From Haliotis asinina (Eukaryota), in assembly GCF_037392515.1 (NCBI RefSeq), contig NC_090294.1:7457870-7521869 (forward strand): a DNA stretch of 64,000 nucleotides. Direction: 5' to 3'. The position numbers were made by a program, and so were the translations under genes. This document shows positions 1 to 63,678 of the stretch, piece after piece. The notes beneath the pieces were generated by a model that saw only the letters and a program-made list of their open reading frames with translations, was not told the DNA's origin and searched no databases. Numbering within the stretch: the stretch's first letter is position 1; every line of letters begins with the position of its first letter.

Positions 1-1092
1 CCGCTACAAATCTCATAAGTAGGTCTGTTGCAAGTTGGAACATGCGCAGTTTCGTCTACATCATTTGGCTTCTGGCCTCCCACGAGTTCAAGTTTCTCTT
101 GTCGCTTACCTGATTTCTGATTTACCGCGGTTGACATCTGTTCCCTGTGTCTCCACCTTTTAGGCGTTTGATAAAGAGTTCCGCACATCTTTTACATGAA
201 ATATTTCCACCTTCCCCAGTGTAATATTCCTGAAATAAATAGATTACTTTCTTTTATACCTGTTTAGTTTATTGAATGTATATTAAAAGTATATTAAAAG
301 TGAGGTATGCAGGTCAGTTTGTAATTTTGGCGTTTGATTGGGGTAGGAGTTACTGGCAGAACTCTTACTGGCGTTTTTGTCATTGTGAAAATGAACAAGA
401 TATTTTTCTCATGTTTTATTGGAAGATGCCCAAATTGCACTAAATATTTGTAGGAACTCCTCCATTTTATCTATGAAGTAAAATTTGCCATCATGGAGAT
501 TTCAGTTTAGTTAAAACACACATGTTAAATAGGAAAGTGACATTTAAAGGAGTTTTTACCTTCATATTGTTGTGCAACTTGAAACTTGGGGTATATATTG
601 ACCTCTGAGCAAATGCAAATAGATTCATTCCTCTAAAACAGTAAAAGGCATCAAACTCAAACCCAATATTATCATGCAGTGATAGGCTTTCTGAAGTTTA
701 ACTTAAGGGTATACTTGTTGACATCAAGTATGAATTATACTTGTGTGGTGTGTCTCAGACAAAAATCAATAGTAAGAATCAAGTTTACTGCTGAATATTG
801 GGATTACATACTTCTCTTTGTAAATGTTTTGGGCATCACCAGAGTGGCACTCATTTAAGTGGTAATTAGACCATGTTGCCAGAGAGATTGTTCGATGGAG
901 CGATTCAGTCAGTTTAGCTTATGTATTGCTATTTATGACAAATTCAGTATTTGCAAGTAAATATATCTCCAGTGAAACTTCATTTTTTGGGTCTGCTGCT
1001 GTTAAATTTCAATCTTAAGACCTCTGACATCTTTCCATAAGATAAGTTATATGGTGTGAACCCCAACGTTTGCATTTTTTAAAAGTTGAAAC

Positions 1093-1189
1093 ATGCCTGA
1101 CAAACTTGCTGCCTTTTTACAGGCTCCTATGTCAGCAATGGGTGGTTCGGATGGTGAACCAGCTTTGAAGAAGATGAAGGTTGAAAGAG
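1093..1189 (+). CDS. PUF60: PUF60-like splicing factor, putative first coding exon (MPDKLAAFLQAPMSAMGGSDGEPALKKMKVER, donor GT at 1190)
   Basis: ATG ORF ends at a good donor (agag|gtatgc). Its phase (1) matches the phase required by the next recognised exon at 4669. There is no homology support for this N-terminus itself. Confidence 0.4.
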
Positions 1190-4100
1190 GTATGCATTGT
1201 ATTTCGTTTCTGGAGCCTGCTTTGGTTAGATGGAGCTACAGTTGGAATACTATGGGAATGTCATCCTGTCTGCACTGTAGCAAAGTTTACCCAAAAAGCT
1301 GCAACTTGGTTTTCTCAGTAATTGATATGTATGTTGCATGTTATGTCCTTGAATATATTTCAACAAGAAGAGAAACATCTGCTTTGTAAACAGGCTTGTT
1401 TGCAAATATTTTCTGTAATATTTATGTAATGTGTGGCAATAGAGAAAGACATTTTGAAATCACACATCATTACTCATGGATCAAAAGTGTGGAATAGGTT
1501 GATAAACCTGTGCTTTTGCCTGTACTTTATCTTCTATATTTTCAGTTAACCTGATTCCAAGATTGTCACAAGTTTCCAAGGTGTAGCTTGTAGGATGTAT
1601 TTATACACTTAAAAGAATACTGCGAAAGGAGTTGTTACTTGAAGTGCTTGCATGAGTTTGTACCAATAAGGAAGTATTGAAACATCTGAAGTTCACCTGT
1701 TAAAATATTAATTGTTGGCATGACTACTAGGGAATCTGTTTAATTTACATGCGACAATACCGTTGATCATTTACTGTTTCCCGTATTCCTTGGTGTTAGT
1801 TTAGTTGTTTTCTTATAACGAAAGAAATTAAATCATGAATTGTAACTGTTGTTACATTTCATACCATCACAAATTTGCTTGCATGACAAAACCTTACAGA
1901 ACCTGAAAAAAGTGTAATGTTCAGTAATGGTATTTTAGAATGTAGTTTATTTTGTGTGGTGTGCAGTTTTCATGAGCGACAACAGCTAAACTCCATGCTC
2001 TTCCTGTGTTTTATATGATCCTCAGGATGCCAAGAAGTACTCAAAGGGAGACTACTCTGCCTGCGTCCAGGATAACTTGCAATAGACAGAGAAGCATTAC
2101 TGATCATGATGTGTATCGGTTTTACATGTTAATATCAACAGTGTATTGAAGTTACTAGGAATTTTGTGCTAATATCTCTATATATTTCCACAAACCCAAA
2201 GGTGCTTTTTAGACTTTATAAGTACCCTTTATGTGTATTTACAATATCAGAAAAAAATGCTGGGCACATTTTCACATGTTGAAATACATCAAAGACTGCT
2301 TTCTTGTCTGTCAACTTTTTGAATACTATGAATTGTTGTCCCAGTGACATATGCCTCTTTCTCTCCATGTATTTTCAGCGTCAGAAATATTGATGTAAGA
2401 AAATGGGGGACCTGAGAATTCCATCTTCATGATAACTGCTGACTCGTACTGAGTAGCGACTACATGCCGGAATCTACTGTCGATGGCCATCAGCATCATT
2501 TTCAATAAACTTGCAGCTTCTTTGTTTTATCTAATCACCAAACCTACAAAATTTCTGCACAAATTTACCAAAACCTAAAGGTGCATAATTAGCATCACCT
2601 GATGCATAATTTAACAAATAAGTTGTTTTTGTTTTCCAAAAATGTTTGAAATTTTGAATATGGTATGAAATTAATGATCAGTAGACATATGTTATTAGGC
2701 AGCCCGAAATTGCGAAGTAGGCAGTGATCTAATGCTGTCCCTTTCTCTGTCTCTGTGTTTTCAACAGGAGCGTGTGGACATTATACAGTGGCTGTCTCCG
2801 CGTGAAACATGTCTGATGAGCTGCAAGGCCATCCGATTGGCTATGAAACGGTTACATCAAGTACAATAACAAGTTGTTTTTGTTAGGTTCTCAATTGGCA
2901 ACCGTCAAGGTTTACTGTGTATGTTTAATAATGAAAATGGGGTACAACTATTTCTGTGAAAAAAGACTGTTGGTTTGGTTGCTTGAACTAGTGAAATGTT
3001 TTGCAAGCAGATTATCGTCAGGTTTCCTTAGTCTTAAGTATTTTGTATAACACTGTAATTGAGGACATTTTAAGAAAGTTCCCACAATTTGCGTTAAATG
3101 TTGTTTAGTATTGTAGAAATTCAGATTGTATGGGGTACACTTAAAATGTTCTCAGTTTCAGATACTATTCATTGAGATTTGATTGACGTCATCCAATGCA
3201 ATCAACTAGATTTGTTTGTATATGTAGAAGCGATTATTATTTTATTTTACAGATTAAAGGCAAGATTCTGAACTACCAACTGTGTTATCATCCTTGCCCA
3301 AGTGTTATTAAATGGGTGTTATGCAATGCAGCCACTCAACCTATACATTGTTACCTTAAGTAACTTGTTGAGAATATTTTCTTTGTTGCTTCGTGTTCTG
3401 CAACTGTATCTTATATTTGTGTACTGCAGGCATGTTGGTTGGTGTGTGTATACACATAGACACATTGGCATGGCATTTTGTATTATCTTGAAGTGGTACT
3501 GGTTTTGGAGGCATAAGACATTTCAATTCAACATGTTTTTCCTATCTTATTATTTGCCAGATCAAGGTCTGTATTGATTCTGTTGGGAGTTAGGTAATTA
3601 GGGTTGCTGTTGTCTTTGTTGGGGTTATTCTTCAGAAATTTATTGTGGAACTTTTTGTTGTGAACATTTTGTGGTATGAACTTGTCTTAAGTCTGGTCTG
3701 TGTCATACTTTAGCTTCATATATTCTTGAAGTCTTCTTTTTTTGGGGTATGTAAAACCTTCTGGACCTTGTTTCCAGTACATTATGCAGTTACTATGCAG
3801 AATGTAAATGTTCAGACTGTTCATTGCACATGCTGTGTAATGAAAAATGGAATTCGAAGTTGGTGGTAGTTATGGCCTCAGTGTTACAGCTACACAGTGT
3901 TTCATGTCAGGACCCAGGCAGCATTTGTGAATTAATATGGGCAGATTGAATTTTGTCACTGATTTGCATCAATGTTAATTGAGTGGCATATTTTTGATTC
4001 AGTGTGTAGGAATCTGTTGGTGTTACTTGACTTAGTGCTGGTTTCTTATAGGGCTGTAGGTCCTTGAATGCCAAACTCTTGTTTTCTGTTCCAGGCGAGA

Positions 4101-7400: not shown

Positions 7401-7889
7401 GTAGGTTGTTTGCAGAACCCTGATATTGCAGGTTTGAAACATTTCTCTTACATTGCTGCATGGTGATAGGTTTTACTATGAACTTTTATATGTGATCCAA
7501 GATCTCATGGTTGAGAACTGGAGTTTGCGTGATGGGTTGTATTTAGGCATTGAATCAAGGTTATTCATTGTTATGACCGCTATGTAAATACTTTGTGTGT
7601 AATAATGTACATGGTAACTTACAGTTTGAGAAATTAAATAAGTAATGTCCATCAACATAAATAGAAGTAGGTCCTGCCCACTAATCAATGGCATGATGTC
7701 TTTCTCAATATCAGAAAAAAAACCCCATTCTTTACATTGAACTGATTCATTTTAGCTAATTTGTTTCACTGAATTGTCCTAATTTCTTTTTTCAAAGTGA
7801 GACTTGATATCTGTGAAGTTGAGGGAATCCTGCAACATTGCTGTTCGGATGAGAGAATGTTAAGATTTAATTGCCTGTTTGTGTTCCAG

Positions 7890-7961
7890 TGTATTTGAAG
7901 CTTTTGGTCGTATTCAATCATGTAAACTAGCCCTAGATGGATCCAAACCAGGAAAACACAA
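7890..7961 (+). CDS. PUF60: PUF60-like exon, RRM2 part (VFEAFGRIQSCKLALDGSKPGKHK)
   Basis: Acceptor ttccag|t, donor aa|gtgagt. Matches PUF60 [24 protein letters not shown]. Confidence 0.85.
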
Positions 7962-8208
7962 GTGAGTATCAACTGTTTATTCTGGAGGCGAAATATATTG
8001 TTGCAAGGAGAACATATACACACTTTTTATGCTGCTTTTCTAATAGTTTTGTTTTTTAGAAGACAGCATTTCTTGGTATGCAGAAATGGTTTGTTAAAGT
8101 ATTATAACAGACCAAAGAAGTTAGGTCAGATGGAAGTCTTGAATGATATGCTTGCATGCTGTACCATTTTCACGGAAACCTGTATTTATTCAATTCTGTC
8201 TTTGTCAG

Positions 8209-13988: not shown

Positions 13989-15640
13989 TATGTCAGTGAG
14001 CTAGCACTATAGAACCAATTTATATACTATTCCAAAGAATCCAAGGAGCACCTAGGTTTCCTATGATACAGAGAACACATTTGATGGGATGAGAGCTAGT
14101 TTTATTGGGGGTTATGATGAATTCATTGCAGAAACTGAATCACAAGAATTCAGATCGAACAGATGTAGTGCATTGACACAATGCGATAGATACCGTGATA
14201 GGGGTCGCTTGCAAAAGTCACAGGAACTAGAGTTCTTTAGTACCGCACATGTCCCTTTCTGCTCCCAGTGCAGGCAAGACACCGTCGTCTCATCGATGCA
14301 ACAAGATTCCCCAGTGTCTTAATAGCTTAATATCTAACCACCCTTGTTGCAGGAATTACATCAACTGTGCAGCATTTTCAGACATTGGATATTTGATCTT
14401 TATACGTTGCCTTTACATGTCCCACAAGTGTTCAATGGGCTCCAGATCGGGTGAATAGGCCAGCCACTGCACAGTGTTAGCCTTGTTTTGTTGCCTGAAG
14501 TCAAATGACAACTCTCCCTCGGTGTGGTCGTGCGTTATCGTCCTGCAAAATGGCAGCTTGTCCAAAGGCGTTTAGGGCTGGAATAACAGTCGGTTGACAA
14601 ATCCCATCCCGATACCTCATGCCAGTCGGGTTTTCTTTGATGTGATGCAAAGGAGTGCTGTGACCATTGCCGAAGGTCAAACCCCCGCCCTTCCCACGCC
14701 CTCCTAACGTTTACGTCAGAACACCTTTCACCCGGATGTCTGCGTACATGAATACGGCCATCACTGTACTGCAAACAAGATATAGACTCGTCAGTGAAGA
14801 GAACATTGTTCCACTGGCGCCTATCCTAACGCATATGGCGTCTGGCCCAAGTTAAACGGTTGACTCTGTGATGCGGAAGCAGTAGTGGACGTACAGTTTG
14901 ATGTCGCGACCTTACATTCCTCTCAGGCAGACGGACCTTGATGATCTGATCAGAGACACTGACGTTGTATGCATTTCGGAGGAGACTTCTAAAGGCGTTT
15001 GCAGTGACAGTTCTTTGTCGTAAGGATATGATGCCGATGAATCTGTCGTAGCGACAAGTTGTTCGTGGGCGACGTTGTTTACGGACTTCGCCGGTAGTTT
15101 TGAAATGAACCCATTGTCTGTGAATAACCGAGGGTGAAGCATTAAGTTTTCTCGATGCCTCAGGTATGGTAGTACACCACCCCCCCTCCCCCCAATCCAC
15201 CCAATAGCTCTCCCCCTGTCAGCAATGCTGAGGCGGTGGCGCTGAGGCGTGGTTTTCAACATGTGATTGATCTGTGTTTCAAACGTTGCTTACAGGGGAA
15301 ATTTGTGCATGCTGTTCAGGGCGATTTCCACTATCACATGCACAGGCAGATTTGGGTGCATTCAAGAGAATACGACCGATGGAAACCTCCACCTACAGTT
15401 CACAATTGTGTAAAATGTGTAGTTTCCAAATTCAAATCCTTCAAAATTCTAGTGGTTTATCGTTCCAACACAACGTGACATTTAAACTATTACCAGTTGT
15501 CAATTTTTTATTTTTCACCCAATCTCTGTAAACTTTCCAGCATATTAGCTAAAAGCATCGGACAAAATATAAAATATTACTACTGTTCCTTGGATTCTTC
15601 AGAGTAGTATATCTAGGCTAGTACAAACAGCTACACATAC
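13989..15640 (-). mobile_element. Tc1/mariner-superfamily DNA transposon, pseudogenised
   Basis: Imperfect TIRs: left ~13990-14050 (…atatactattccaaagaatccaaggagca) and right ~15584-15640 (tgttccttggattcttcagagtagtatatc…). They enclose a minus-strand Tc1-type transposase. Confidence 0.75.
14240..15262 (-). pseudogene. Tc1-like transposase with frameshifts
   Basis: Minus-strand ORF pieces 14912-15262, 14826-15200 and 14535-14774 carry N-terminal HTH-like blocks (LSIADRGRAIGW…, …VIHRQWVHFKTTGEVRKQRRPRTT…RVNRLTWARRHM). They also carry catalytic-core blocks (QYSDGRIHVRRHPGERCSDVNV… and LAYSPDLEPIEHLW in the minus-strand translation of ~14404-14481). These segments sit in at least three different frames. 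Confidence 0.8.
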
Positions 15641-20292: not shown

Positions 20293-20570
20293 AGTGAGTG
20301 AGTGAGTATAGTTTCAAGCCGCACTCAGCAATATTCCAGCTATATGGCGGCGGTCTGTAAATAATCGAGTCTGGACCAGACAATACAGTGACCAACAACA
20401 TAAGCATCGATCTGCGCAGCTGGGAACCGATGACATATGTCAACCAAGTCAGCGAGCCTGACCACCCGATCCCATTAGTCGCCTCTTACGACAAGCATAG
20501 TCGCCTTTTATGGCAAGCATGGGTTGGTGAAGTCCTCTTCTACCCCGGGAACTTCATGGGTCTACAGATT
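20293..20570 (-). mobile_element. SINE family A, full-length-looking copy
   Basis: (gagt)n gtatagtttcaagccgcactcagcaatattccagctatatggcggcggtctgtaaataatcgagtctggaccagacaatacagtg … gcgagcctgaccacccgatcccattagtcgcctcttacgacaagcat … ggttggtgaag. The same consensus recurs at least 6 times in the window. Confidence 0.75.
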
Positions 20571-22839
20571 AACAAGTAAACCATATGCACTGACTGAATA
20601 TATGGCGGGCAGAGCGGAATGAGTTTGACTAGGAACAAGGAACATTAGAGAATGAATCTGCAATCCGAGATCGGTGTACAGTGTGTTTCCGATAGCGATA
20701 ACCAGGATTGTCATGAGGAACATGAAACAATGGAAGTTTAGACTTTTTTGAATCTTATGTAAAACTATGTCTTCTTCGTGGCTACATAAAACTCTCTGAA
20801 AGCTTCACTGAAGCCTTGAATGTCGTAAACTTGACCAAACGCGTTCCGTGCAAGAGTGGTAAGACGTTGTTTCAAATCTTGGTAAAAAGAGCCTGATCGA
20901 ATGTGTGTAAATTTTTGTGAAATATAAACACGAAAGGCTTGATACTGTTGGAATATTATGCGGCATAAAAGGGAGATTAAGCACTGGGAACCCAATCATT
21001 GGTAGAGTTAGGTCAGTAAGCAGAGAATGTGTCATTGAGTAGGAGAATACAATGCACAATACACATTTTCAACATACATATACTGGACAAAAATAGTTAG
21101 GGATATATGTAAATTTTGAAATTATGAATAATGATCTGTTTATTCATTGACACACTGATGAAATAGCCATCATAAAATTACAAATTTCCTTAAGCTATTT
21201 TGTTCTGTATATTTACGCTTCTATTCCCCTGTAATCTAGTGATAACTGAATAATGTTTTGCTGTAATAAATGATCTATAGCATGGGGATGCCGGAGATAT
21301 GGTTGTTACTGCTTATTGGAGTTACCCCATCTCCATAGAAATGTCTAACTTAACTGGGCATTGATGACAATGGTGTTTATAGGTGAAATGTACTATGAAT
21401 CACATTGGCTGCTCAACTTGTGTGTCGCCGTGTCCATTTTCCCCATGTACATATTATGATACAGTCGGATTATTTGACAGGGTGAATATGCTCGCTGGTG
21501 AGGCGAACTAGACAGTAAGAGCCAAGGTAATCTAACACATGCATATGCTTTTGACAGTTACAAATAAACCCATATAAGTTGAAAAGGGAGACCCAGTTTG
21601 CTGGGACAGTCAGGGGAACTTGAGGAAATCTGGACTTGCGTCATTTAGGTTAGCAATGCAGGGAGGGCTTGACATTAGGGGCAGTGATGTGTTTCAGGGA
21701 CTGTGAGGCTGACTAGTATCAAGGCTGTCCCTCAGTCATGTTCAGGCGCCTGTGTCTCCCGTCCCGGCCCGTGTCGCTCACAATGACCCTCTTTCACCAT
21801 CTGGGAACGCGACCATCATGTCGCCTGTTTGTGTATGTAACTGGACACCAGCGCAGATTCAGGAAGTCGGTGTTTGGAACAATTTGTACTGCCGTGCAGG
21901 TTGTGATGGGAACGTGTGGTTTGACACTTATCGCAGTAACTGTTTTATACCACAAATCGATCTTCCTTGAAAATGTTTTTTAACAACCTACCTACATTAC
22001 AGCAAGTCGCATATGTGCTCCTTATGAAATGTTCACTCAAATAAATAATTCATGAACACGAATCAAATGCTCAGTTTAATTAAAGAATTGATGAATTAAA
22101 TGCTCTATACTCATATGTGGCACCGTATATTATACTGGTTGGTACCAAGAGGTTATCAATCTGCTAAAAACCCAGCGCAGTTCAATGTTGATATTTATAT
22201 ATTACCAAGCAGTGTTTGTGGTTTTAAAGACCAATAAATGCTAGGTATTCGAGGTGCAAGGTGCAAGCAACAACTGTTTGTCAATTAACCTGGCTCTTAA
22301 TTATTCGAGGGGTATGGAAAAATAGATTCAAATATTTTTCATGAAATCGGATGCACGTTTTAACCTATTACTTCTTGGTATGCGAACGATCATGGTGTGT
22401 ATCCGTCTGAATCTTGCTAGATGATCTTAGCTGATTAGATCACGAGAAGAATTGAGAGTAATCATGGTAGTAATCCTCCTTCAGTTCCTCCAAATTAAAC
22501 AAATAGATTCATTACGTGGGTTCCATCATTGTCTATCTCGAATATATGTAGACAGTATTTTTACGAGCCAAGACTCGCGCCTCTTTGGTAATAAGCACTA
22601 TCGCGTGGGCTCAATAAGAGCAAGATACGTTAACTCCAAGTACAAAGATACTGCTTGAAATAAACCTCAATAAGTGAATACAAAACACATGGCTGATTGA
22701 AACGGCGGCACCATGGTCTTGTTTGGTAAATATTGTGTGTCCTTGGGGCATTTCTGCACATCACGTGTTCATCACGTGTACTGGTACTGTTCACTGGATC
22801 AGTGAATTCAGTCAGTGTTGACTGTAGACAGAGCCTGGG

Positions 22840-28159: not shown

Positions 28160-28435
28160 ATGGTTGGGTGGGTTGTTGTTTGACACGGAGCAATGTTCCA
28201 GTTATATGACGGCGGTCTGTAAGAATCGAGTCTGGAACAAACAACCCAGTAATCAAAAGCATAAGCATCGATCTACGCAACTGGGATAAGATGACATGTG
28301 CCAACGGGTTAACGAAATCAGCGAGCCTGACCACCCGATCCCGTTAGCCGCCTCTTACGACGAGCAAAGTCGATTTCTTGTGGCAAGCATGGGTTGCTGA
28401 AGGCCTATTCTACCCCGGACCTTCACGTATCTCAG
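28160..28435 (-). mobile_element. SINE family A copy (intronic)
   Basis: ttccagttatatgacggcggtctgtaagaatcgagtctggaacaaac…gcgagcctgaccacccgatcccgttagccgcctcttacgacgagcaaag…ggcaagcatgggttgctgaaggcctattctaccccggacc. Confidence 0.7.
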
Positions 28436-29210: not shown

Positions 29211-29560
29211 GGGAAAAATTAATCTGTCATACACAGACAAGAGCATTCCTGAACCAAACAAAAGCATTCCTTAGGAGCACAAAAAAAATTCCTTAAGGAG
29301 CGTAGGAGCAGCCTTAGGGGTCAAAAGAAATTCCTATAGGAGCGTAGGAGCAACCGTAGGGGTCAAAAGAAATTCCTATAGGAGCGTAGGAGCAACCTTA
29401 GGGGTCAAAGGAAATTCCTATAGGAACGTAGGAGCAACCTTAGGGGTCAAAAGAAATTATTATATGTGCTCCCAGGTGCATACAGGTTCGCTATCTCACA
29501 TTCCATAGGTGTCACATTTAGACAATACACATTTCTTCTATACAATATCAAATTCTTATA
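29211..29560. repeat. Polinton left TIR with 4 copies of a ~42-bp subterminal repeat (ccttaggggtcaaaagaaattcctataggagcgtaggagcaa)
   Basis: Reverse-complement match to 39620-39830, and the tandem copies at 29267-29452 are visible. Confidence 0.8.
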
Positions 29561-32402
29561 GTTTTCTTTGTTTTATATTATAAACAAATATAAACTATTC
29601 AAGTTGTTTTACACTCCATTTAATCATGTTCACTTCAAAACAGTTTTACATGTAGACAAGAGACACGTAATTATGCGGTGAAAGGGTTAATCGCACTTAT
29701 TCACCACATGCGACAAACTCTCCAGTGTACACTCGAACACCATGTTTACATAACAATAAAATGTAGGTCGCCTCATCCCGCTTCGCGTTTCATACACAGT
29801 ATAGTTATAATCTACCTCCCTAGTAGTGCATGAAATTCAAACACAAAGTACTAGTATACTACAACAGTGAGTTGAATTCAAGTCATAATGTAGGATATCT
29901 CGTCTTGCATACTCATACTTAGAACAGTTTACTAGAACAGTGAGGTAAATTCAGCATTAATCATTCAGTTTGATTTACACTCCTAGTCGTGCTTATTTAA
30001 CACAGCCAAGTACATTCAAACCCCATGCTGTCATCACATGCTTTCATAACGTATATAATGAAAATCGCTTTGTCACTCATACAGAGTATCGTTATATAAT
30101 GTTTGCTTGCTAGCAGTTCAAACATCCATTTTTAGAACTCTTAAACTGGGTCAGCTGACTCTATGTATATATTTTTCAAAAGTAGACTGCAAAGTAAATA
30201 GGGTCTATGCGATACAGGGAGTGAATTGAAAGAAGTGTAAATATCCGATAATTACTGAACCGAAAACGATACTTGCAAAGTCCTTGACATTGATAAAAAG
30301 TTCATCACTTTTAGTTACTGCTTTCATAGAAAAGAAAACAAATGATTGTTGCTTAATAAACATATTATAATTTTACCCACATTGAATGCAAACATAGGCA
30401 TGACAAATCCAGCATCAATACCAAAAATCTCATTCTCTTTATCCAATCAATCCAGTCACTGCAGATCAAATCCCTTTTCGTGGACGAACAAGTATGTACT
30501 TGTAGAAAAACAATCAGATAAAAGATAATAGCAGTTATGTTGTTTTACTCAACTAAAAACCACAGTGACAAGAGAAAGAGAGATTCATCAGCTTGTGTGA
30601 ACCAGCAGGCAATGTCAGCTTGGTATTGAAATGTTATCATAAAGTATACAAGCTTATGATAACGTATCCTGTTAACTTAATGTTCACATGACTATTATAA
30701 TGAAACAACCATAACTGAGAGATGATATAACAAAATGTAGAAAGTAGAAACCCTTTTGTTCTTCCCATCTTTAACAGAAAAATCGTCCTCCTGATGGGAA
30801 ACATCCATCTCCTCCTCCTGATGAGAACATTCCATTCCCTCCTCCTCATGGGAACATCCACGTCCCTCCTTCTCCTCCTCCTCCTAATAGACACACCAAC
30901 TCCCTCCTCTCTTGATGGGAACATCCACGTCCCTCCTTCTCCTCCTCCTCCTAACAGACACACCAACTCCCTCCTCTCTTGGTGGGAACATCCACCCTCT
31001 ACACACTTACATATGCATACTCTGAGGACTGAAGTAAACCTAAGTCTTTAAAGGTCACATGCAACCAAAACATCAAACATAATTAAACATATTTATCACT
31101 TATTCATGACATATAATATACATTGCTGCTTTTAAAAAAACGAATAAACAAAATTATAAGCGTACAATCGCGATTCAAAAGTGCAATATTTTGTACTTGG
31201 GCTTACTTCCCCCGAAACTAAGCCCTCGGGAGACCGAACCCAGTCGTAGCGGGTGGATCTGCACTCAAGTGTAACGACGGCTTCCGATTGGCTGTTTCAT
31301 TTGCTGATATGCTGAGGGTTCATTGTGTGTACAGAAAGATGATCTGTTTGATGGGCATTTTAGAACTTCTTCTATTGTACTTGATGCGTCGTTTCAGTAT
31401 GGATTCATATACTGTACATATACTGTCAAACAAAACATCATATACACTAAAAGAAGTTGTTATCCATGAAGAATGTATATTGAGATGTTAGGTTTTGAAA
31501 ATACATGTTCTCTGAATTTGAGCTCGATCCAATAAAAAATCATCTCAGTAGAGATGGCAAACTACTGCGTGGCTGGAATCTGTCATTCGTCCAACTACAA
31601 AGCAGGACTTGAAACTGACAAGAGTTTGCACCAGGTTCCGTCAGATCCACTCATCCGAAAAAAATGAATGTAGTTTGTTTGCAACCCACAGGCATAAGCA
31701 CATGTCATGTGTATCAGACCTGCCTAATTACATAATGTGGCAGAGACGGGAGTCGGATGCACGAGTCATACATCAGTTTATTTTCTTAATGTCGTATTGT
31801 CTGATAGGTGTTAAGTTCAAATTGCACGTGGTCAGTGATTGAAGCTGTGTACTGCATGTTGTCTTTAGCAGACAGGCAGGCAGACATATAGGTGTGAATA
31901 AACCAGACACTGAGCTTTCTCTGAGAGACTGCTTACCACAATCAACATGTTTTTTTACGTAACGAGTAGATTATTTACTTGTTTTTGTACACAACCAAGA
32001 TTAGTCTAATGCTCACAACCTCAGACTCCGGACATGCATACTGTTTCAAGCTCCGCGAACTTATTCACTGCACATGCGGTATGGACGCAGCGCAGCACAG
32101 CTGTTGCTCACTGGTATCTAGCAAAGAAACAGTTTTATGCTTTCCTGCTTAGAGAAAGGACATATTGTTGAACCATGAGGACAAATTCAACAAATGATAT
32201 ACTTGGACCTATATCATCACAGAGAAGAGCAAAATCATGTAAAAGAGCATCACTGATGAAAAGAAAAGACAATTTAATCTACAAGAAAAAGAAGAGGAAC
32301 ATGAGAGGCAAGATAGGAACAAAGCCTCCACAGAAAATACAGCACGAGCCAAAACTAAATTGAAATGAGCTCAACCAAAATTGATACATAACTAGATGGT
32401 TA

Positions 32403-32645
32403 GTGGGTATAAAAGACTGCTTCATACTCAAATACCTGCTCATTTCTACCATGGAAATGATCACCTGTCCTGAATGTGGTGAGACATTTACAAGAACCGA
32501 TAACCTACGGAGACATCTGAAGCAATTTCATAGGTCAACACAATTCTTAACTCCTCCGCCTACTCCTAATGGCAGCATAAACACTCCTCCTCCTGATCAG
32601 AACACTCAGCCTCCTCCTCCCCCTAAGAATGTATGCTCACAGTAA
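32403..32645 (+). CDS. Small ORF with a C2H2-type zinc-finger-like motif (CPECGETFTRTDNLRRHLKQFH) and a Pro-rich tail, inside the Polinton
   Basis: Cys2-His2 spacing is visible in the translation. Its function and authenticity are unknown. Confidence 0.3.
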   Translation: MGIKDCFILKYLLISTMEMITCPECGETFTRTDNLRRHLKQFHRSTQFLTPPPTPNGSINTPPPDQNTQPPPPPKNVCSQ

Positions 32646-32649
32646 AAGA

Positions 32650-33350
32650 AAGAATTCAAATTTGTAATTCCTTCAAATGTTCTTGTTGTTGGACCAAGCT
32701 GTTGTGGGAAATCAATGTTCACATATCATCTTCTACGAGATGGTTGGATTGAACCTCCCCCAGATCGTGTTGTTTGGTGTTATATGCAATGGCAACCCTT
32801 ATATCTATAACTATTTTTGAACAACTACCCCAAAAAGTTACTTTTGTCAAAGACCTACCCTATGATATCACTGATGAAAACTACTTTGATGCAAATTTGG
32901 GGAATGTTTTGGTATTGGACGATTTTTTTGGGTCAATCAAATGTTGACAAGAAAATATCTAAACTGTTCACTCAAACTTCTCATCATAAGAATTATGATT
33001 CTTCTTCTTGTTTGCAAGAGGACGAGAATCCAGAGACATTGCACTGGACGCTCATTATGTCACCCTGTTTTATTCACCAATTGACAAACAACAAATTAAA
33101 CTTTTTGCTCGTACAATCTTTCCTGAAAATATGGATTACTATTTGTCTATGTATGAAAAGATTACAGAAAAGCCATATGGTCAGCTTGTCATTGATTTAA
33201 AACATACCACAAAAGACAGGGACCGACTGCATGTGAACATCATTAAAGAAACAGATGAGGGAGCAAATGCTCAGTGTGAACGTGAACAGCCTAGGAAGCA
33301 GATCATTGTCAGTCTCAGTCAGCAAAACAAGAGCCTCATTTGATAAACCT
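32650..33350 (+). pseudogene. Polinton packaging ATPase (FtsK/HerA-A32/IVa2-like), frameshifted
   Basis: Walker A (VLVVGPSCCGKSMFTY) and Walker B (NVLVLDDFFG) are present. A C-terminal block …YVTLFYSPIDKQQIKLFARTIFPENMDYYLSMYEKITEKPYGQLVIDLKHTTKDRDRLHVNI… is also present. The pieces lie in at least two frames. Confidence 0.65.
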
Positions 33351-34559
33351 GTCCAGACAAGCAGCAAAACTGAAGAACATAGCAGAGCTGATCATTACCC
33401 CAATACAGAAACAGATTCAGACACGGATAGCGATACAGGTCCTTTCACTGTGGCTATTGCTTGTGATGACTGTGGAGTGTTGATGGATAATGTAATAGAT
33501 CTGCAGAACCACATCAAGACCTGGTGTCCTGTCAAAAACCATAAAGCAGTTAGGAAACGAACCAAATGGTCTGAAATCAAGAATGTCAGTGATGATGATG
33601 ACTGTGGGAAAATCAATTGACTAGCAGTCTAAACAGCTATATAGAATACACCCAATACTTTAAACAGGCCCCTCTGTTTCAAACGCTTCTAGACAGCCTA
33701 GAAGAAATGAATCCATCATCCAAAGTAAGATCAAATTCTTTCTTAAACCGAAAATGAAAGAGATAATGACTCGTATAGATATGCCGGACATGGAGAGTGA
33801 TGCTGAATCTGACATGGTTACACAGGAAGAACAGGAGGATGGTGATGATGACCAGAGTGAGCAAGAATGAAATGTATACGTGTTCAGGCTATTTTCTTTG
33901 TCAGTTGAATCCATGACATTGAAGGAGGAAGATGCAACCTAAACCTAGATCCAGTTTGATTCACATTTTGAAAAACATTCATAGCCGGAAATGGGGTCAT
34001 GTTAGACAAAGGATAAAGAAGATTTCACTCTATTTGAGTGGACTTGTAAAGCTGGGACCTCCTGGAGTGACATCATTACGATTTTATGACACAATTGCTA
34101 TTTGTACATGTTCATGTAATCAATGATTTTGTGTCTTTGGAAATCTATAAATATGCTTCATGTCAAGGTTTCAATAAAGTTTGAATGCAAGCTCTCCTTA
34201 TTTGTTTGTTTATCTTCTGTCAGGGTGTGTGTGCCCAACTCATTCTTTTTATCAATAATGAATTGAATTACACCCTCACCAACTAATGTATAGAAGAACA
34301 TAAAACAAACGCTAGACTTCAACCAAACTAATCTTTTATTTCTTTTTAAAAAACCTTTCTGTATATGTATACGATAATTGATACTTACATAAATACTTGT
34401 TGTCACATGGTTACACACTATGTATTATACTCAACCCATACACAAAGGCTAACAGTATTTAGAATAACAACAAATATATTAAGACATGACATAACAATCA
34501 ACAACATTAATAAAACTCCATCTTGATTTCAATTTGTTTTGTTATCTTGAGGTGCACCA

Positions 34560-34901
34560 ACCATCTATATGTAATCACAATGAGGAGACAACCTAAAATG
34601 TTGTCATGGGATCATCTTCTGGTATCCACTATGATGCACGAAGTTTACACTTGAAGCAGTACACTTTATCAGATTGTCCTGTATAAATAAATCCTGCTTC
34701 AGCCATGGATTTAGGTGACTGTTTCATCTGAATAGGCCAAGTCTTGAACGAAGCCAGTCTATCAGTAAACGTTTGTCCAAACTGTTTGGTAAAGGGAGAT
34801 ATTTCAACACAGTCAGCCACCACTTCATCATTAAGAAAATGTCCACACACATCCATGTTAGTAGATGTTTTCATGTCCAACCCCAGTTGAAAAATGATCA
34901 A
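34560..34901 (-). pseudogene. Decayed BIR (baculoviral IAP repeat) domain ORF inside the Polinton
   Basis: DRLASFKTWPIQMKQSPKSMAEAGFIYTGQSDKVYCFKCKL matches the BIR consensus R-L-x-T/S-F-x-x-WP…AGFYY-G-x-x-D-x-V-x-CF-x-C. The domain is cut by an in-frame stop, and the remainder (…WIPEDDPMTTF) is recognisable after the stop. Confidence 0.6.
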
Positions 34902-34923
34902 AGGTATGGCCTCAACTTTGGTT

Positions 34924-35310
34924 TTATTGAGTCAAGTACCCTATACATGACTCATCACTGAATATTGAAGTTCTCAAACGAGCATAATTTTCCATTGTAA
35001 ATGGGCTAACATCAATAAGTAAATAGCCATATCTTTTGACATCTATCATTTGACCAGGAAATTCTTTGCTGACAGGCTCAGCTAGGCCGTCAAACAGTTC
35101 CGATTTATTGCCTTTCAGATACATTGCAGTCCAATGTCGACCTTGTTTGCCTCTCACATCGGTATTAACAATAAGCCCAACACCTCTCATCAACATTGGA
35201 GATGTAAGCATAGGTAAAGTGTCTCTAGCATACACTCCTAAGACATGGTTTCTAAGCACAGGATCACACTGAATAGCACATAACAATTCAGTAGCTTTCA
35301 TCTTCTTCAC
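34924..35310 (-). CDS. Adenain-like (adenovirus-type / Ulp1-like) cysteine protease ORF of the Polinton, possibly chimeric at its C-terminus
   Basis: GVGLIVNTDVRGKQGRHWTAMYL…SELFDGL aligns to adenain AIVNTAGRETGGVHWMAF…YLFEPFG (catalytic His and Glu/Asp region). The C-terminal 30 aa resemble the ATPase C-terminus encoded on + at ~33150-33240. Confidence 0.5.
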   Translation of the reverse strand: MKKMKATELLCAIQCDPVLRNHVLGVYARDTLPMLTSPMLMRGVGLIVNTDVRGKQGRHWTAMYLKGNKSELFDGLAEPVSKEFPGQMIDVKRYGYLLIDVSPFTMENYARLRTSIFSDESCIGYLTQ

Positions 35311-35417
35311 TTGACATACACATTCCTGGCTTGGTCAATTTCTATGAGCGAGGTCCTTTCAGTCATGACAACACAACTCAGTGTTTTGGTTAAGGCAGCA
35401 TTGAACTGAATTTCTAG

Positions 35418-36810
35418 TCATACATTTCCCCGTCTTCCTAGACTGAGATGTTCAGTCCCAGTTTCATTCAGTTCGAACACAAAAAGGGCACTTCCCAGTA
35501 AACATACTTTTCTGCTGATGAAGTTCCCTTTACTTTCTCTCTTTACATTCTCACCATCAAATAGATTCAGATAGGTATCAACATCATCTGCACTGGATGC
35601 TCTCCCTGGACGACTGACACCATTTACATTCAGAGTAACCTTTTTGATCATACTCGACTGAAAGTTGTATGGGTTCTTCTGCAAAGAATCTGACATACTG
35701 CTGCTCTCAACAAACGCAACTGTGTATCGATGGGCAACAGGATTTGGGACATTCTCAATGGTAAATGATTCAGTAGGTACAGGAATAGTGGTAGATTTGA
35801 CTTCTGTGTTCACATAGGGATACAGTACATTGTTTGGTTTCCCGTTTGTTTTTTCTTAAAAAAATGTGTTATGAGCCAGAATTAAAGCTGGGTTCACTTT
35901 CAAATAATACACTTTAAGTGTTGCATCTAAAAGGCTTATTTTGTATGTAGTATTAGCAACTCCACTCATGAGACAAAACTGGGGATCTGTTCTATACAAG
36001 GTTACATTCAATTTTACTCCATTAATCAAATGTCGATCAATATTGAAAACATCTTCAAACAAATTCCCAACCATTGTCAACTCTTGACTTTTGACAATGA
36101 AGTCTCCACGTTTCAACAATCCTTGATTACCACCAGTAACAGCATCAGTTGATTCAATGTCGTCATTGTCTTCACCTGTATCTTATAGAACAAGTATGAT
36201 GTTAACTGAGAACTCTTGGCATCTGTTCCATAATTCAACAATGTCTTGAACATGCTTCTATAGGGATAGTGATTATTTACACTCGATACCAAATGATTTC
36301 GTAGGGAAACCGAAAGTTGGGAGAACAGCGACTGTAAAAACAAGTTGACAGTTCCCACCTCCTCATTCTCAGCCAGTGAAGATGATTTAGCATCATCATG
36401 CACCACTTTAAGTTTCACATGTAGTCTTGTTCTCTTCAAATCAATGTACTCACTACCCTATTTAGGGATAGCAAATTCCAATGGTGACGAGTCACTGATT
36501 TGGCTTAATGGACGTACATCGTTGAAATAGAACGCCTCTGTGGTCATTGCATAACTAGGAAGCGAAACAATGGAGTAAGAATCTGGGAGATATTCCGAAA
36601 AGTTGTCCCATTGTGTTAACTGAAAATATCGTTTCCTGCAACAGGTGTGCGCTTCAAACCTTTAACTGTCTTAGAGGCAGTAGTGTCTGTCTGATGTATC
36701 CTCTTGGAAGTGATGATCTGTTATCTTGCAGTTCTTTTTAAAGACGTGCGACGTCTCTCTTTGACATCTGCTTTCTCTACTCTGCTCTGCGTCTCTGATG
36801 ACATTTGCAA
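35418..36810 (-). pseudogene. Capsid-like / unknown Polinton ORF (~460 aa) broken by stops and a frameshift
   Basis: Collinear minus-strand ORF pieces (36808→36440 with 2 stops, then 36439-36113, 36119-35856, 35813-35418) lie between the integrase and the protease, where Polintons usually carry capsid genes. I cannot recall a diagnostic motif for them. Confidence 0.3.
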
Positions 36811-36875
36811 TACGTCTCAATACGTTAACTGAGCATCTCCTACCAATGAACTATCACACAAGTTGCACAGTATGT

Positions 36876-56699: not shown

Positions 56700-57900
56700 A
56701 AACGGACACAAGAAATGTGTAAACGTGTGTCCAGTGGTCAACATTCAGTTAGCACTGACTATCTTAACGGCATGTACTCGTCCTGTGGTAAACATTCAGT
56801 TAGTACTGACTATCATAACGGCATGTACTCGTCCTGTGGTAAACATTCAGTTAGTACTGACTATCTTAACGGCATGTACTCGTCCTGTGGTAAACATTCA
56901 GTTAGTACTGACTATCTTAACGGCATGTACTCGTCCTATGGTACACATTCAGTTAGTACTGACTATCTTAACGGCACGTACTCGTCCTGTGGTCAACATT
57001 CAGTTAGTACTATCTTAACGCCACGTACTCGTCCTGTGGTAAACATTCAGTTAGTACTGACTATCTTAACGGCATGTACTCGCCCTGTGGTAAACATTCA
57101 GTTAGTACTATCTTAACGCCACGTACTCGTCCTGTGGTAAACATTCAGTTAGTACTGACTATCTTAACGGCATGTACTCGTCCAGTGGTCAACATTCAGT
57201 TAGCACTGACTATCTTAACGGCATGTACTCGTCCAGTGGTCAACATTCAGTTAGTACTGACTATCTTAACGGCATGTACTCGTCCAGTGGTCAACATTCA
57301 GTTAGTACTATCTTAACGCCACGTACTCGTCCTGTGGTAAACATTCAGTTAGTACTGACAATCCTAACGGCATGTACTCGTCCTGTGGTCAACATTCAGT
57401 TAGCACTGACTATCTTAACGGCATGTACTCGTCCAGTGGTCAACATTCAGTTAGCACTGACTATCTTAACGGCATGTACTCGTCCAGTGGTCAACATTCA
57501 GTTAGCACTATCTTAACGGCATGTACTCGTCCTGTGGTCAACATTCAGTTAGTACTGACAATCCTAACGGCATGTACTCGTCCAGTGGTCAACATTCAGT
57601 TAGCACTGACTATCTTAACGGCATGTACTCGTCCAGTGGTCACCATTCAGTTAGCACTATCTTAACGGCATGTACTCGCCCTGTGGTAAACATTCAGTTA
57701 GTACTATCTTAACGGCATGTACTCGTCCAGTGGTAAACATTCATTTAGCTCTGAGTATCTTAACGGCATGTACCCGTCCTGTGGTAAACATTCAGTTAGC
57801 ACTGACTATCGTAACGGCATGTACTCGTCCTGTGGTAAACATTCAGTTAGTACTGACTATCTTAACGGCATGTACTCGTCCTGTCGTAAACATTCAGTTT
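56700..57900. repeat. 51-bp satellite, ~24 units including 42-bp short variants (unit cattcagttagtactgactatcttaacggcatgtactcgtcctgtggtaaa)
   Basis: Near-identical head-to-tail copies. The overlapping + ORFs in the six-frame track (56689-57918) are periodic artefacts of the 51 = 3x17 unit. Confidence 0.9.
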
Positions 57901-60660: not shown

Positions 60661-62470
60661 AATTCATAAAATAAAAAAAGAAATATTTGCAGTCTGAGAA
60701 GCTGAAGAAGACTGTGACTGTTGACGGAGGTTGAGTGATTGGGGCTTTCATGGAGAAGCTGAAGAAAACTATGACTGTTGACGGAGGTTGAGTGATTGGG
60801 GCTTTCATGGAGAAGCTGAAGAAGACTGTGACTGTTGACGGAGGTTGAGTGATTGGGGCTTTCATGGAGAAGCTGAAGAAGACTGTGACTGTTGACGGAG
60901 GTTGAGTGATTGGGGTTTTCATGGAGAAGCTGAAGAAGACTGTGACTGTTGACGGAGGTTGAGTGATTGGGGCTTTCATGGAGAAGTTGAAGAAGACTGT
61001 GACTGTTGACGGAGGTTGAGTGATTGGGGCTTTCATGGAGAAGCTGAAGAAGACTGTGACTGTTGACGGAGGTTGAGTGATTGGGGCTTTCATGGAGAAG
61101 TTGAAGAAGACTGTGACTGTTGACGGAGGTTGAGTGATTGGGGCTTTCATGGAGAAGCTGAAGAAGACTGTGACTGTTGACGGAGGTTGAGTGATTGGGG
61201 CTTTCATGGAGAAGCTGAAGAAGACTGTGACTGTTGACGGAGGTTGAGTGATTGGGGCTTTCATGGAGAAGCTGAAGAAGACTGTGACTGTTGACGGAGG
61301 TTGAGTGATTGGGGTTTTCATGGAGAAGCTGAAGAAGACTGTGACTGTTGACGGAGGTTGAGTGATTGGGGTTTTCATGGAGAAGCTGAAGAAGACTGTG
61401 ACTGTTGACGGAGGTTGAGTGATTGGGGCTTTCATGGAGAAGCTGAAGAAGACTGTGACTGTTGACGGAGGTTGAGTGATTGGGGTTTTCATGGAGAAGT
61501 TGAAGAAGACTGTGACTGTTGACGGAGGTTGAGTGATTGGGGTTTTCATGGAGAAGCTGAAGAAGAGTCTGACTGTGACTGTTGACGGAGATTGAGTGAT
61601 TGGGGCTTTCATGGAGAAGCTGAAGAAGACTGTGACTGTTGACGGAGGTTGAGTGATTGGGGCTTTCATGGAGAAGCTGAAGAAGACTGTGACTGTTGAC
61701 GGAGGTTGAGTGATTGGGGCTTTCATGGAGAAGTTGAAGAAGACTGTGACTGTTGACGGAGGTTGAGTGATTGGGGCTTTCATGGAGAAGCTGAAGAAGA
61801 CTGTGACTGTTGACGGAGGTTGAGTGATTGGGGCTTTCATGGAGAAGTTGAAGAAGACTGTGACTGTTGACGGAGGTTGAGTGATTGGGGCTTTCATGGA
61901 GAAGCTGAAGAAGACTGTGACTGTTGACGGAGGTTGAGTGATTGGGGCTTTCATGGAGAAGCTGAAGAAGACTGTGACTGTTGACGGAGGTTGAGTGATT
62001 GGGGCTTTCATGGAGAAGCTGAAGAAGACTGTGACTGTTGACGGAGGTTGAGTGATTGGGGTTTTCATGGAGAAGCTGAAGAAGACTGTGACTGTTGACG
62101 GAGGTTGAGTGATTGGGGTTTTCATGGAGAAGCTGAAGAAGACTGTGACTGTTGACGGAGGTTGAGTGATTGGGGCTTTCATGGAGAAGCTGAAGAAGAC
62201 TGTGACTGTTGACGGAGGTTGAGTGATTGGGGTTTTCATGGAGAAGCTGAAGAAGACTGTGACTGTTGACGGAGGTTGAGTGATTGGGGTTTTCATGGAG
62301 AAGCTGAAGAAGACTGTGACTGTTGACGGAGGTTGAGTGATTGGGGTTTTCATGGAGAAGCTGAAGAAGACTGTGACTGTTGACGGAGGTTGAGTGATTG
62401 GGGCTTTCATGGAGAAGCTGAAGAAGACTGTGACTGTTGACGGAGGTTGAGTGATTGGGGCTTTCATGGA
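60660..62470. repeat. 60-bp satellite, ~30 units (unit gagaagctgaagaagactgtgactgttgacggaggttgagtgattggggctttcatg)
   Basis: A highly homogeneous array with c/t and g/t variants. It generates a 614-aa minus-strand periodic ORF ((MKAPITQPPSTVTVFFSFS)n), which is most likely an artefact of the 60 = 3x20 periodicity. Confidence 0.9.
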
Positions 62471-63678
62471 GAAGCTGAAACGTGTTCCTCCGACATGATC
62501 CTAGTCAAATCAGTCTGACATGCCATACAGGACGTTGTCACGGTTATATATACGAAAAATATAGGGTATTCAGTGGAGTTGAGATCTGTTTTTGGAACAC
62601 TTATTCAGCATCAAAGTATGAAATGTTGTTTTTTCACACTTGATCTTCATGATTATAAAAATCTCCCTTAATACAGGACAGGACCTAGATGAAGATGGAT
62701 TTGGACCATCGCAGTTTGCAAATTTATGATCTTTTTCACAGTCCACATACTTAAGGCAATATTGTGAGCCGTGACCGAACTTCTGATATTTGTAACATCC
62801 AAATGGAAATAGTCGGCTTTAAGTGATTGTGAACCTTTTTTATTCGGGAGATGTTTCGATACAGATCCTTGAACGTAGGGAAAGCTGTTTATTTTGTGTA
62901 ACATTACATACAGTTGATTATGTACTTGATAATTATCACTCTTGGTAATGAGGTCTTTAATAGTCATTTAAAAGATATACACATAAGGAGGAGAGTTTTC
63001 TTATGGATATCAACTTCTTTATTGTGAGGAACACTTAATAAGAAGTGTTCGTTATAATAAAGAAGTCGACATCCATAAAAACCAATCTTCCTTATAATGC
63101 TTGGTTTTAACTCATGGTCTGCTACAAGGTTATGAAGAAGGTACAAGTCCACATCCGATGATTTCGACCTTAAACACATTTTCCCCTATTATAAAGGCAA
63201 CCTGGATACACACTCTCCTGTAAATGCAGACAGTCATGCCACAGTCATGTTAATGTTAAAGTGACAGTACGATCGTGAATTTCGTCATAAGCAAACTGCC
63301 TATACCGGTACTCTGTTAAAACCGGCAGTTTTATTTGGTCCCGAGTGATGCCGGTATTGACAGAGCACACTGCATTACCATCTGTTACATGCAACAGGGC
63401 TTTCAAAAATAACGCTTGCAACTGTCACATATCTATGTTTTTTCAGTCATGTAACAGTAATGTGAAGGTGTCAGTGCATCGGATGCAGTAAACAGATATC
63501 TTTGCCATAAAGTCACTTTAATAACGGGCTTAATCATGATAGTGCATTGGTTAAAGATTAACATTATGTGTGGTTGTATTCCACCTGTTGCCAATGTATC
63601 AGACAATATAACTTATGATTCACAAAAGGCACAAGAAATGTTCACGCAGTTTCAGACGTCTGCTGTTAGACTACCGTT

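Follow-up and report, generated by a model that had tools for sequence, protein, structure and literature searches.

A decayed single-BIR gene carried by a Polinton/Maverick copy in Haliotis asinina, and its intact counterparts in related elements

The Polinton copy in the window

The stretch of DNA analysed here, which we call the window, is 64,000 nucleotides of the Haliotis asinina contig NC_090294.1 (assembly GCF_037392515.1, positions 7,457,870 to 7,521,869). At about 29212-39829 it holds a decayed copy of a Polinton/Maverick element, bounded by TIRs and lacking PolB, and it is this copy that carries the BIR gene of interest. The left TIR (29212..29554) was recognised from inverted-repeat pairs and also matches the TIR of a copy in H. 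rubra; within it, at 29280-29458, a 42-bp subrepeat occurs 4.3 times. The right TIR is at 39635..39829 and is defined by inverted-repeat pairs I4 and I6-I12, from sequence and alignment. The two arms, of about 200-340 bp, are 84-92% complementary, and the unit that they bracket is about 10.6 kb long, with the BIR gene 4.7-5.3 kb inside both TIRs. No 6-bp TSD was found at the inferred ends of the element, where the flanks differ (TGAGTAG on the left and TTTGGAA on the right), and the termini may be eroded or misplaced.

The element genes were located by tblastn of the window with proteins from an intact relative. On the minus strand they are in the order integrase, two small ORFs, capsid, protease N-terminus, ATPase C-terminus and BIR, and stops or frameshifts are present in every element gene mapped on that strand. 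At the integrase-proximal end of the element are two ORFs of 136 and 144 aa (38497..39350, minus strand) that are conserved in the H. rubra copy (L007), with 79% and 63-67% identity by tblastn to positions 3116-3493 and 2699-3062 of that copy. The integrase pseudogene (37064..38195, minus strand) is of the rve plus chromodomain type and has six stops and a frameshift; its tblastn match to the integrase of an intact H. rufescens element (L001) has E=5e-89. It is followed at 36619..37064 (minus strand) by the remnants of p125 and p145, recognised by comparison with the relatives, in all of which these small conserved ORFs lie between the integrase and capsid genes; we infer that p145 is a candidate minor capsid protein. 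The major capsid pseudogene (35310..36601, minus strand), with three stops and one frameshift, is of the double jelly-roll, "F54H12.2-like" kind with a 433-aa product, and shares 88-89% of its residues with proteins from H. rubra and H. asinina (89% for the H. asinina capsid protein P0046). In DNA it agrees with the copy in H. rubra (L007) at 85-90% identity.

Between the capsid pseudogene and the BIR gene is a chimeric protease/ATPase ORF, assigned by comparison with the relatives to 34927..35301 on the minus strand within an open ORF of 128 aa (34924..35310). Residues 4-84 correspond to protease residues 1-81, with 83% identity to the H. rubra copy, and the remainder is the last 45-59 or so residues of the packaging ATPase, the respective matches being at 35301-35069 and 35103-34927. 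It is thus an in-frame fusion: about 0.9 kb has been deleted internally, and with it the region of the protease Cys nucleophile and the Walker A and B motifs of the ATPase. The preliminary description had the BIR next to a protease ORF: there is an adjoining ORF, but it is this deletion fusion and not a protease. A reading based on ORFs alone would mistake the fusion at 34924-35310 (minus strand) for an intact small protease.

With regard to classification, an rve integrase, a double jelly-roll major capsid protein, an adenain-like protease with an FtsK/A32-like ATPase (in the window only as the fused halves) and TIRs are all found in the window copy, and the protein-primed family B polymerase, which is missing from it, is present in relatives. 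Pfam scans of the decayed protease, capsid and ATPase ORFs of the window gave nothing usable, and the classification is therefore taken from the intact relatives. In the H. rufescens element PolB matches DNA_pol_B_2 (PF03175, E=2.3e-21), the integrase matches PF00665 (rve, 33.3 bits) and PF00385 (Chromo, 30.2 bits), both above cut-off, the protease matches Peptidase_C5 with 25.1 bits (cut-off 21.3), and the ATPase matches Pox_A32 with 21.3 bits, slightly below the cut-off of 22.8. PolB of the H. rubra copy is on the reverse strand. In one of the environmental contigs discussed below (L023) the PolB slot is taken by a 755-aa ORF that is labelled by its position and an Endonuclease_7 match. Where we call such elements adintovirus-like, the term describes gene content only and is not a clade placement.

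Homology to the relatives stops about 5 bp past the stop codon of the BIR gene, and by homology comparison the interior segment at 29555..34523 is unlike the p154/p196/PolB region of the family. No tblastn match to PolB was obtained anywhere in the window, and p154 and p196 are also missing from this copy. The window copy is an old, non-autonomous, rearranged and deletion-derived element that is no longer functional. Within the same TIR pair, and in the orientation opposite to the BIR gene, there is a second packaging ATPase (32661-33286, plus strand), frameshifted but nearly full-length, which is 27-42% identical to ATPases of Polintons of other clades and only 28-34% identical to those of the family to which the window element belongs. 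It has ORFs of C2H2 zinc-finger type on either side (32403-32645 and 33255-33620, plus strand), and the whole segment (32403-33620) looks like a fragment of another Polinton lineage that has replaced the p154/p196/PolB region.

Several other features of the window can be recorded here. There are two large minisatellites, one at 60696-62479 with 31 copies of a 57-bp unit at 97% identity, which gives rise to a spurious minus-strand ORF of 614 aa, and the other at 56729-57899 with 23 copies of a 51-bp unit. A short dispersed repeat, probably a SINE or MITE family, is found around the region at 20299-20571, 28308-28371, 40818-40990 and 44031-44297, in copies of 87-175 nt with 87-93% identity and in both orientations. 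Overlapping ORFs at 14826-15262 (minus strand) resemble by eye a fragment of a Tc1/mariner-type transposase.

The BIR pseudogene

The BIR gene is at 34856..34529 on the minus strand and is a pseudogenised, intronless, BIR-only gene, as defined by Pfam and by DNA alignment to relatives. Its start ATG is at 34856-34854 and the native stop of the family, TGA, at 34531-34529, and the predicted product of about 109 aa has a leader beginning MDVCGHF, a BIR core and a short tail. The extent of 34560-34901 first given for it was wrong, and the recognition of a BIR core was correct. The stop-masked ORF 34629..34901 (minus strand) matches the Pfam BIR profile PF00653 at E=5.1e-17 and 62.6 bits, for which the curated gathering cut-off is 22.9 bits, and covers profile positions 1-57 of 70; this is far beyond chance. 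No second BIR was found in the 64-kb window by tblastn or with the family HMM.

The minus-strand translation of 34480-34910 reads MDVCGHFLNDEVVADCVEISPFTKQFGQTFTDRLASFKTWPIQMKQSPKSMAEAGFIYTGQSDKVYCFKCKLRAS*WIPEDDPMTTF*. For the anatomy of the gene we aligned the window DNA with two relatives, L002 (the gene for P0001) and L007 of H. rubra. P0001, which is intact and 109 aa long, is the nearest relative of the window BIR, with 89% amino acid and 81.6% nucleotide identity. There are three lesions, all on the minus strand. The first (34629..34631, from the alignment with both relatives) is a change of CAG to a premature TAG stop between Cys2 and the conserved Trp, at a site occupied in intact relatives by CAG (Gln) or another sense codon. 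The second is a 2-bp deletion (TG) between bases 34602 and 34603, where the alignment has GAC--AACAT in the window against GACTGAACAT; it shifts the frame between PMT and EH, immediately 5' of the zinc-ligand His. The third, at 34565..34567, is again CAG to TAG (CAG in L002), and falls in the shifted frame past CDYI. Beyond the deletion this frame reads HFRLSPHCDYI*MVGAPQDNKTN*.

Of the zinc ligands, Cys1 (34658-34656) and Cys2 (34649-34647) share one frame, and the His (34600-34598) and the last Cys (34579-34577) are still encoded in the other, so that the C-x2-C-x16-H-x6-C pattern cannot be read in a single frame, with the TAG and the 2-bp deletion intervening. The domain had been described as decayed after DDPMTTF, and that is not the case: the remainder is frameshifted, and at the DNA level the BIR domain is full-length. 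The gene belongs to the BIR family proper, with PF00653 present in all its homologues, and the window copy is a pseudogene of it. The two stops and the deletion confirm that this copy is dead, as had been proposed, and in itself it is functionally unimportant.

BIR genes in related elements

The relatives come from H. rufescens, H. rubra and the vent snail Gigantopelta aegis, together with metagenome and Logan contigs, one of which is from a marine biofilm metagenome (SAMN08714628; PMC6355793). The order common to intact relatives is integrase, two small ORFs, double jelly-roll capsid, adenain-like protease, A32-like ATPase, BIR and p154. In the H. rufescens element (L001, GCA_023055435.1) all ORFs are open, and the full order is PolB, two 209-aa paralogues, integrase, p145, p125, the 433-aa protein, protease, ATPase, BIR, p154 and p196, with 777 aa of PolB inside the locus and the ORF running off its 5' end. 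The BIR gene is on the same strand as the integrase, capsid and protease genes, in a slot between the packaging ATPase and the conserved 154-aa ORF.

The synteny of protease, ATPase, BIR and p154 is seen in L001, L005, L007 and L008, and L005 has all four, the last as a p154-like gene, in succession on a single strand. In the short contigs L006 and L002/L003 the ATPase is followed by the BIR and then by the next gene, and L004 is like these except for an extra 169-aa ORF 5' of the BIR. The copies from H. rubra (L007) and G. aegis (L008) were retrieved by starting from the capsid protein, a choice that is unbiased for presence of a BIR, and both have an intact BIR directly 3' of the ATPase. It had been suggested that the BIR is cargo of the Polinton, and this is borne out by its position inside the TIRs and by the intact genes in the same slot of other copies, with the zinc ligands retained in H. 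rufescens, H. rubra, G. aegis and L002-L006. The G. aegis locus also has a second, more distant BIR at 876-1370 (minus strand, HMM E=9e-15), about 11 kb upstream of the BIR of the element.

Five small single-BIR proteins are 59-89% identical to the window BIR, and all begin MDVCG. Each of the seven BIR ORFs from the same clade is open, and the C-x2-C-x16-H-x6-C ligands are kept in all eight intact relatives compared (those seven and one from the second clade described below), with 28 invariant columns. Pairwise Nei-Gojobori dN/dS is 0.09-0.22 for all pairs with unsaturated dS. The value for the window copy against L002 is 0.14 at dS=0.47, which indicates that most of the divergence took place under constraint and that the window copy died recently relative to the split. 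These data support the view that the BIR is a regular and selectively maintained passenger gene of a Polinton/Maverick family of abalone and other marine invertebrates.

A family profile search gave 42 small BIR proteins of 75-186 aa. One subgroup begins MDRVW, at 45-51% identity, and its genes lie in Polintons that look complete (L011 and L023-L032). These belong to a second clade of elements, with a capsid protein about 40% identical, in which a related BIR-only gene is immediately upstream of the integrase and a p154-like ORF directly follows the ATPase. The clade 2 BIR genes are at 7764-8030 and 16840-17295 of L011 and at 1482-1838 of L023. L011 has two inverted copies of the element, tail-to-tail with the ATPase ends facing each other and the BIR and integrase ends outermost. 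The contigs L023-L032, of up to 13 kb and with all ORFs open, recur across many Logan runs, and the L023-type contig is found again in many sequencing runs of the SRR269483xx/4xx series. No BIR was found within 10 kb on either side of the capsid gene in the relatives from the sea star Patiria (L009) and the coral Porites (L010) at HMM E≤1, and the gene is thus dispensable for this type of element. The BIR is an accessory gene of some lineages and occupies two different slots.

When P0001 is the only query, per-domain scores of the small Polinton-type BIRs range over 70-160 bits, whereas the best single domains of multi-BIR cellular IAPs, drawn from an exhaustive HMMER search with P0001, reach at most 70. 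These scores are compatible with a single early acquisition of a BIR and later relocation, though they do not establish it. The exhaustive search gave 7,932 matches, and the best 150 are mostly multi-BIR proteins, which are favoured by summed scores, so that the ranking says little on the origin of the BIR. A scan of IMG/VR gave no Polinton-like viral contigs; its matches (L012-L022), at 35-44% identity, were all IAPs of large DNA viruses. One of the viral genomes, IMGVR_UViG_2595698905_000001 (211,518 bp; L021/L022), has two BIR gene copies that are 42% identical to the Polinton BIR, a similarity at the generic BIR level only. No bivalve members of the Polinton BIR family were found in our searches.

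Origin and putative role of the BIR protein

Taking these observations together, we consider it highly probable that 34856..34529 (minus strand) is a dead, RING-less, single-BIR accessory gene of a gastropod-associated Polinton lineage, and that the product was of viral IAP type. The family protein has a leader of about 30 residues, one canonical BIR and a short tail. The BIR-only proteins are 103-118 aa and have no RING, which implies that they have no E3 activity; a RING (PF13920) was found only in one distant relative, P0154. Comparison with PDB gave generic BIR matches (E about 1e-14 to 1e-10) to NAIP BIR2/3, cIAP1, ML-IAP, DIAP1 BIR2, XIAP and survivin.

The anti-apoptotic role and the binding partners are proposed by analogy. 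BIR proteins of baculoviruses, entomopoxviruses, iridoviruses, ASFV and malacoherpesviruses have an established behaviour in cell death, and it is on this basis that we suggest the same for the Polinton protein. It would most likely act as a viral-type IAP, with a zinc-stabilised BIR fold that would bind caspases and/or IAP antagonists, or some other partner in death or immune signalling. Cell death would then be delayed while the element replicates by means of its protein-primed PolB and assembles capsids.

The first alternative to weigh is that we see part of a host IAP gene, either one exon or a processed pseudogene, beside a Polinton insertion or interrupted by it, as the preliminary description had allowed. 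RefSeq does call the Haliotis homologues host IAPs ("death-associated inhibitor of apoptosis 1-like" and "BIRC5.2-A-like"), and molluscs have large IAP families (PMC7831173). However the gene lies deep inside both TIRs and runs without an intron from its own ATG to its own stop, and its slot between ATPase and p154 is shared by elements of three named gastropods and several environmental contigs. The RefSeq models P0004, P0126 and P0015 are themselves fusions of the BIR with p154 or the capsid protein of the element, and larger cellular IAPs are absent among the close matches. The synteny, the integrity of the ORFs and the purifying selection lead us to reject this scenario, which we give almost no weight. 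Related to it is the suggestion that a host IAP had been captured. Host genes are known to end up as cargo in Polintons (Widen et al. 2023, as cited in PMC11131425), and the window copy is rearranged directly downstream of the BIR, so that one could think of a recent transduplication of host DNA peculiar to this copy, as accidental and functionless cargo. That is very improbable given that an intact BIR is in the same position in elements that are divergent (BIR down to 59% and capsid protein to about 50% identity), with the low dN/dS ratios given above, and that host proteins are never closer than Polinton-borne BIRs. We reject a capture specific to this copy because of the intact BIR in the same slot across divergent elements; the BIR is an old component of the lineage under purifying selection, and what falls away from the capture proposal is that it was recent. 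It could also be argued that the intact gastropod copies are host-domesticated genes in which selection serves the host, as they are annotated as genes in RefSeq and a dN/dS well below 1 cannot alone tell who benefits. This too we regard as unlikely in the extreme or nearly so, since PolB, integrase, capsid, protease and ATPase genes are also open around the intact BIRs of L001 and L023, the BIR is present in many copies and in environmental contigs, and in the window it decays together with the remainder of its element.

A conserved Polinton gene need not be an inhibitor of apoptosis, and the product might instead be a type-I-like module that binds adaptors and rewires signalling of the innate-immune or NF-kB type, or a survivin-like factor in mitosis or in chromatin tethering of the element. 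The single BIR without RING and the survivin-like size would fit such a role, and in PDB survivin matches about as well as the BIRs of XIAP or cIAP. In the gastropod clade Leu is aligned with the NAIP BIR2 Trp that we take to correspond to XIAP W323 in the groove for IAP-binding motifs. Leu or Val at the XIAP W323 position occurs in type I BIRs, which bind signalling adaptors and not caspases or Smac. The partner in the gastropod clade may thus be neither a caspase nor an IBM protein, and from sequence a type-I-like, adaptor-binding role may apply there. Against a non-apoptotic role, the Trp is kept in clade 2 and in the intermediate small BIR proteins, the acidic residue of the W-x-P-E-D-D-P segment (WIPEDDP), presumably equivalent to XIAP E314, which with the Trp marks the groove of type II BIRs, is retained, and there is no C-terminal coiled coil of the survivin type. 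To our knowledge all virus-encoded BIR proteins studied to date are tied to cell-death control. We think a non-apoptotic function rather unlikely, though it deserves serious consideration, and prefer the viral-type IAP.

IAPs in elements of this kind are already known. IAP and Bcl2 homologues have been reported in adintoviruses (Starrett et al. 2021, Virus Evolution, PMC8502044), and an IAP is annotated in leafhopper adintoviruses (2026 preprint, bioRxiv 10.64898/2026.07.28.741253). Those elements likewise combine PolB, rve integrase, double jelly-roll capsid, adenain and FtsK/A32 ATPase with an accessory BIR/IAP homologue, but the reports are brief (a single sentence, a figure legend or a figure in a supplement) and deal mainly with arthropod and vertebrate elements. 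In contrast the lineage described here is one of gastropods and marine invertebrates, its capsid protein is "F54H12.2-like", its BIR-only gene keeps a fixed slot after the ATPase (before the integrase in clade 2), and constraint is documented. The new details are thus the occurrence in gastropods, the constancy of the slots and the evidence for constraint. A coral polintovirus study and a 2024 survey of double jelly-roll viruses do not mention IAP or BIR, and our literature search found no paper linking Polintons with BIR in molluscs.

There are parallels in other systems. The IAPs of baculoviruses, entomopoxviruses and iridoviruses (Op-IAP/Cp-IAP type) are also virus-encoded BIR proteins with a presumed role in cell survival, at 35-44% identity, but usually have two BIRs and a C-terminal RING E3 and are in genomes above 100 kb, whereas the Polinton protein has a single BIR in about 109 aa, no RING, and is in an integrating element of 13-20 kb. 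RING-less or single-BIR architecture occurs in DNA viruses in ASFV A224L and the BIR proteins of mollusc herpesviruses, which belong to another virus class and have only generic BIR similarity to the Polinton BIR. Survivin (BIRC5) and cellular BIR-only proteins are likewise small, RING-less and single-BIR, and one Polinton BIR homologue is annotated "BIRC5.2-A-like"; however the Polinton protein is only about 35-40% identical to survivin, lacks the coiled coil, and is encoded without introns in a mobile element. The Burro elements, giant Gypsy-like retroelements of planarians, carry BIR and BCL2-like motifs (Arkhipova & Yushenova 2019, PMC6431247), and are thus also mobile elements with an apoptosis-regulator domain, but they are LTR retroelements with the BIR inside a giant polyprotein, whereas in the DNA virus-like Polinton the BIR has a small gene to itself.

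The conservation of a death-regulator gene argues that Polintons of the BIR-bearing kind behave as viruses, as a virus must keep its host cell alive during replication and a passive transposon need not. The finding also bears on host genomes. In the abalone RefSeq annotation, Polinton BIRs are named as host IAPs and spliced to neighbouring element ORFs, either p154 or capsid (P0004, P0126, P0015). In the hard clam there is a clade of 49 IAPs, of which 42 are intronless and single-BIR, with enrichment of DNA transposons around IAPs, and the intronless IAPs have been interpreted as due to retroposition (PMC7831173); dispersed and intronless IAPs are also reported in G. aegis, among other species (2026 survey, PMC13159474). 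Mollusc IAP counts, and the accounts of "expansion" built on them, may be partly inflated by Polinton copies. More broadly, and as a tentative proposal that we think possible but would not bet on, BIR-only genes may be old, monophyletic and widespread in marine-invertebrate Polintons, with Polinton amplification explaining part of the expansions of intronless single-BIR genes in molluscs. If so, Polintons would serve to carry apoptosis regulators into the genomes of their hosts.
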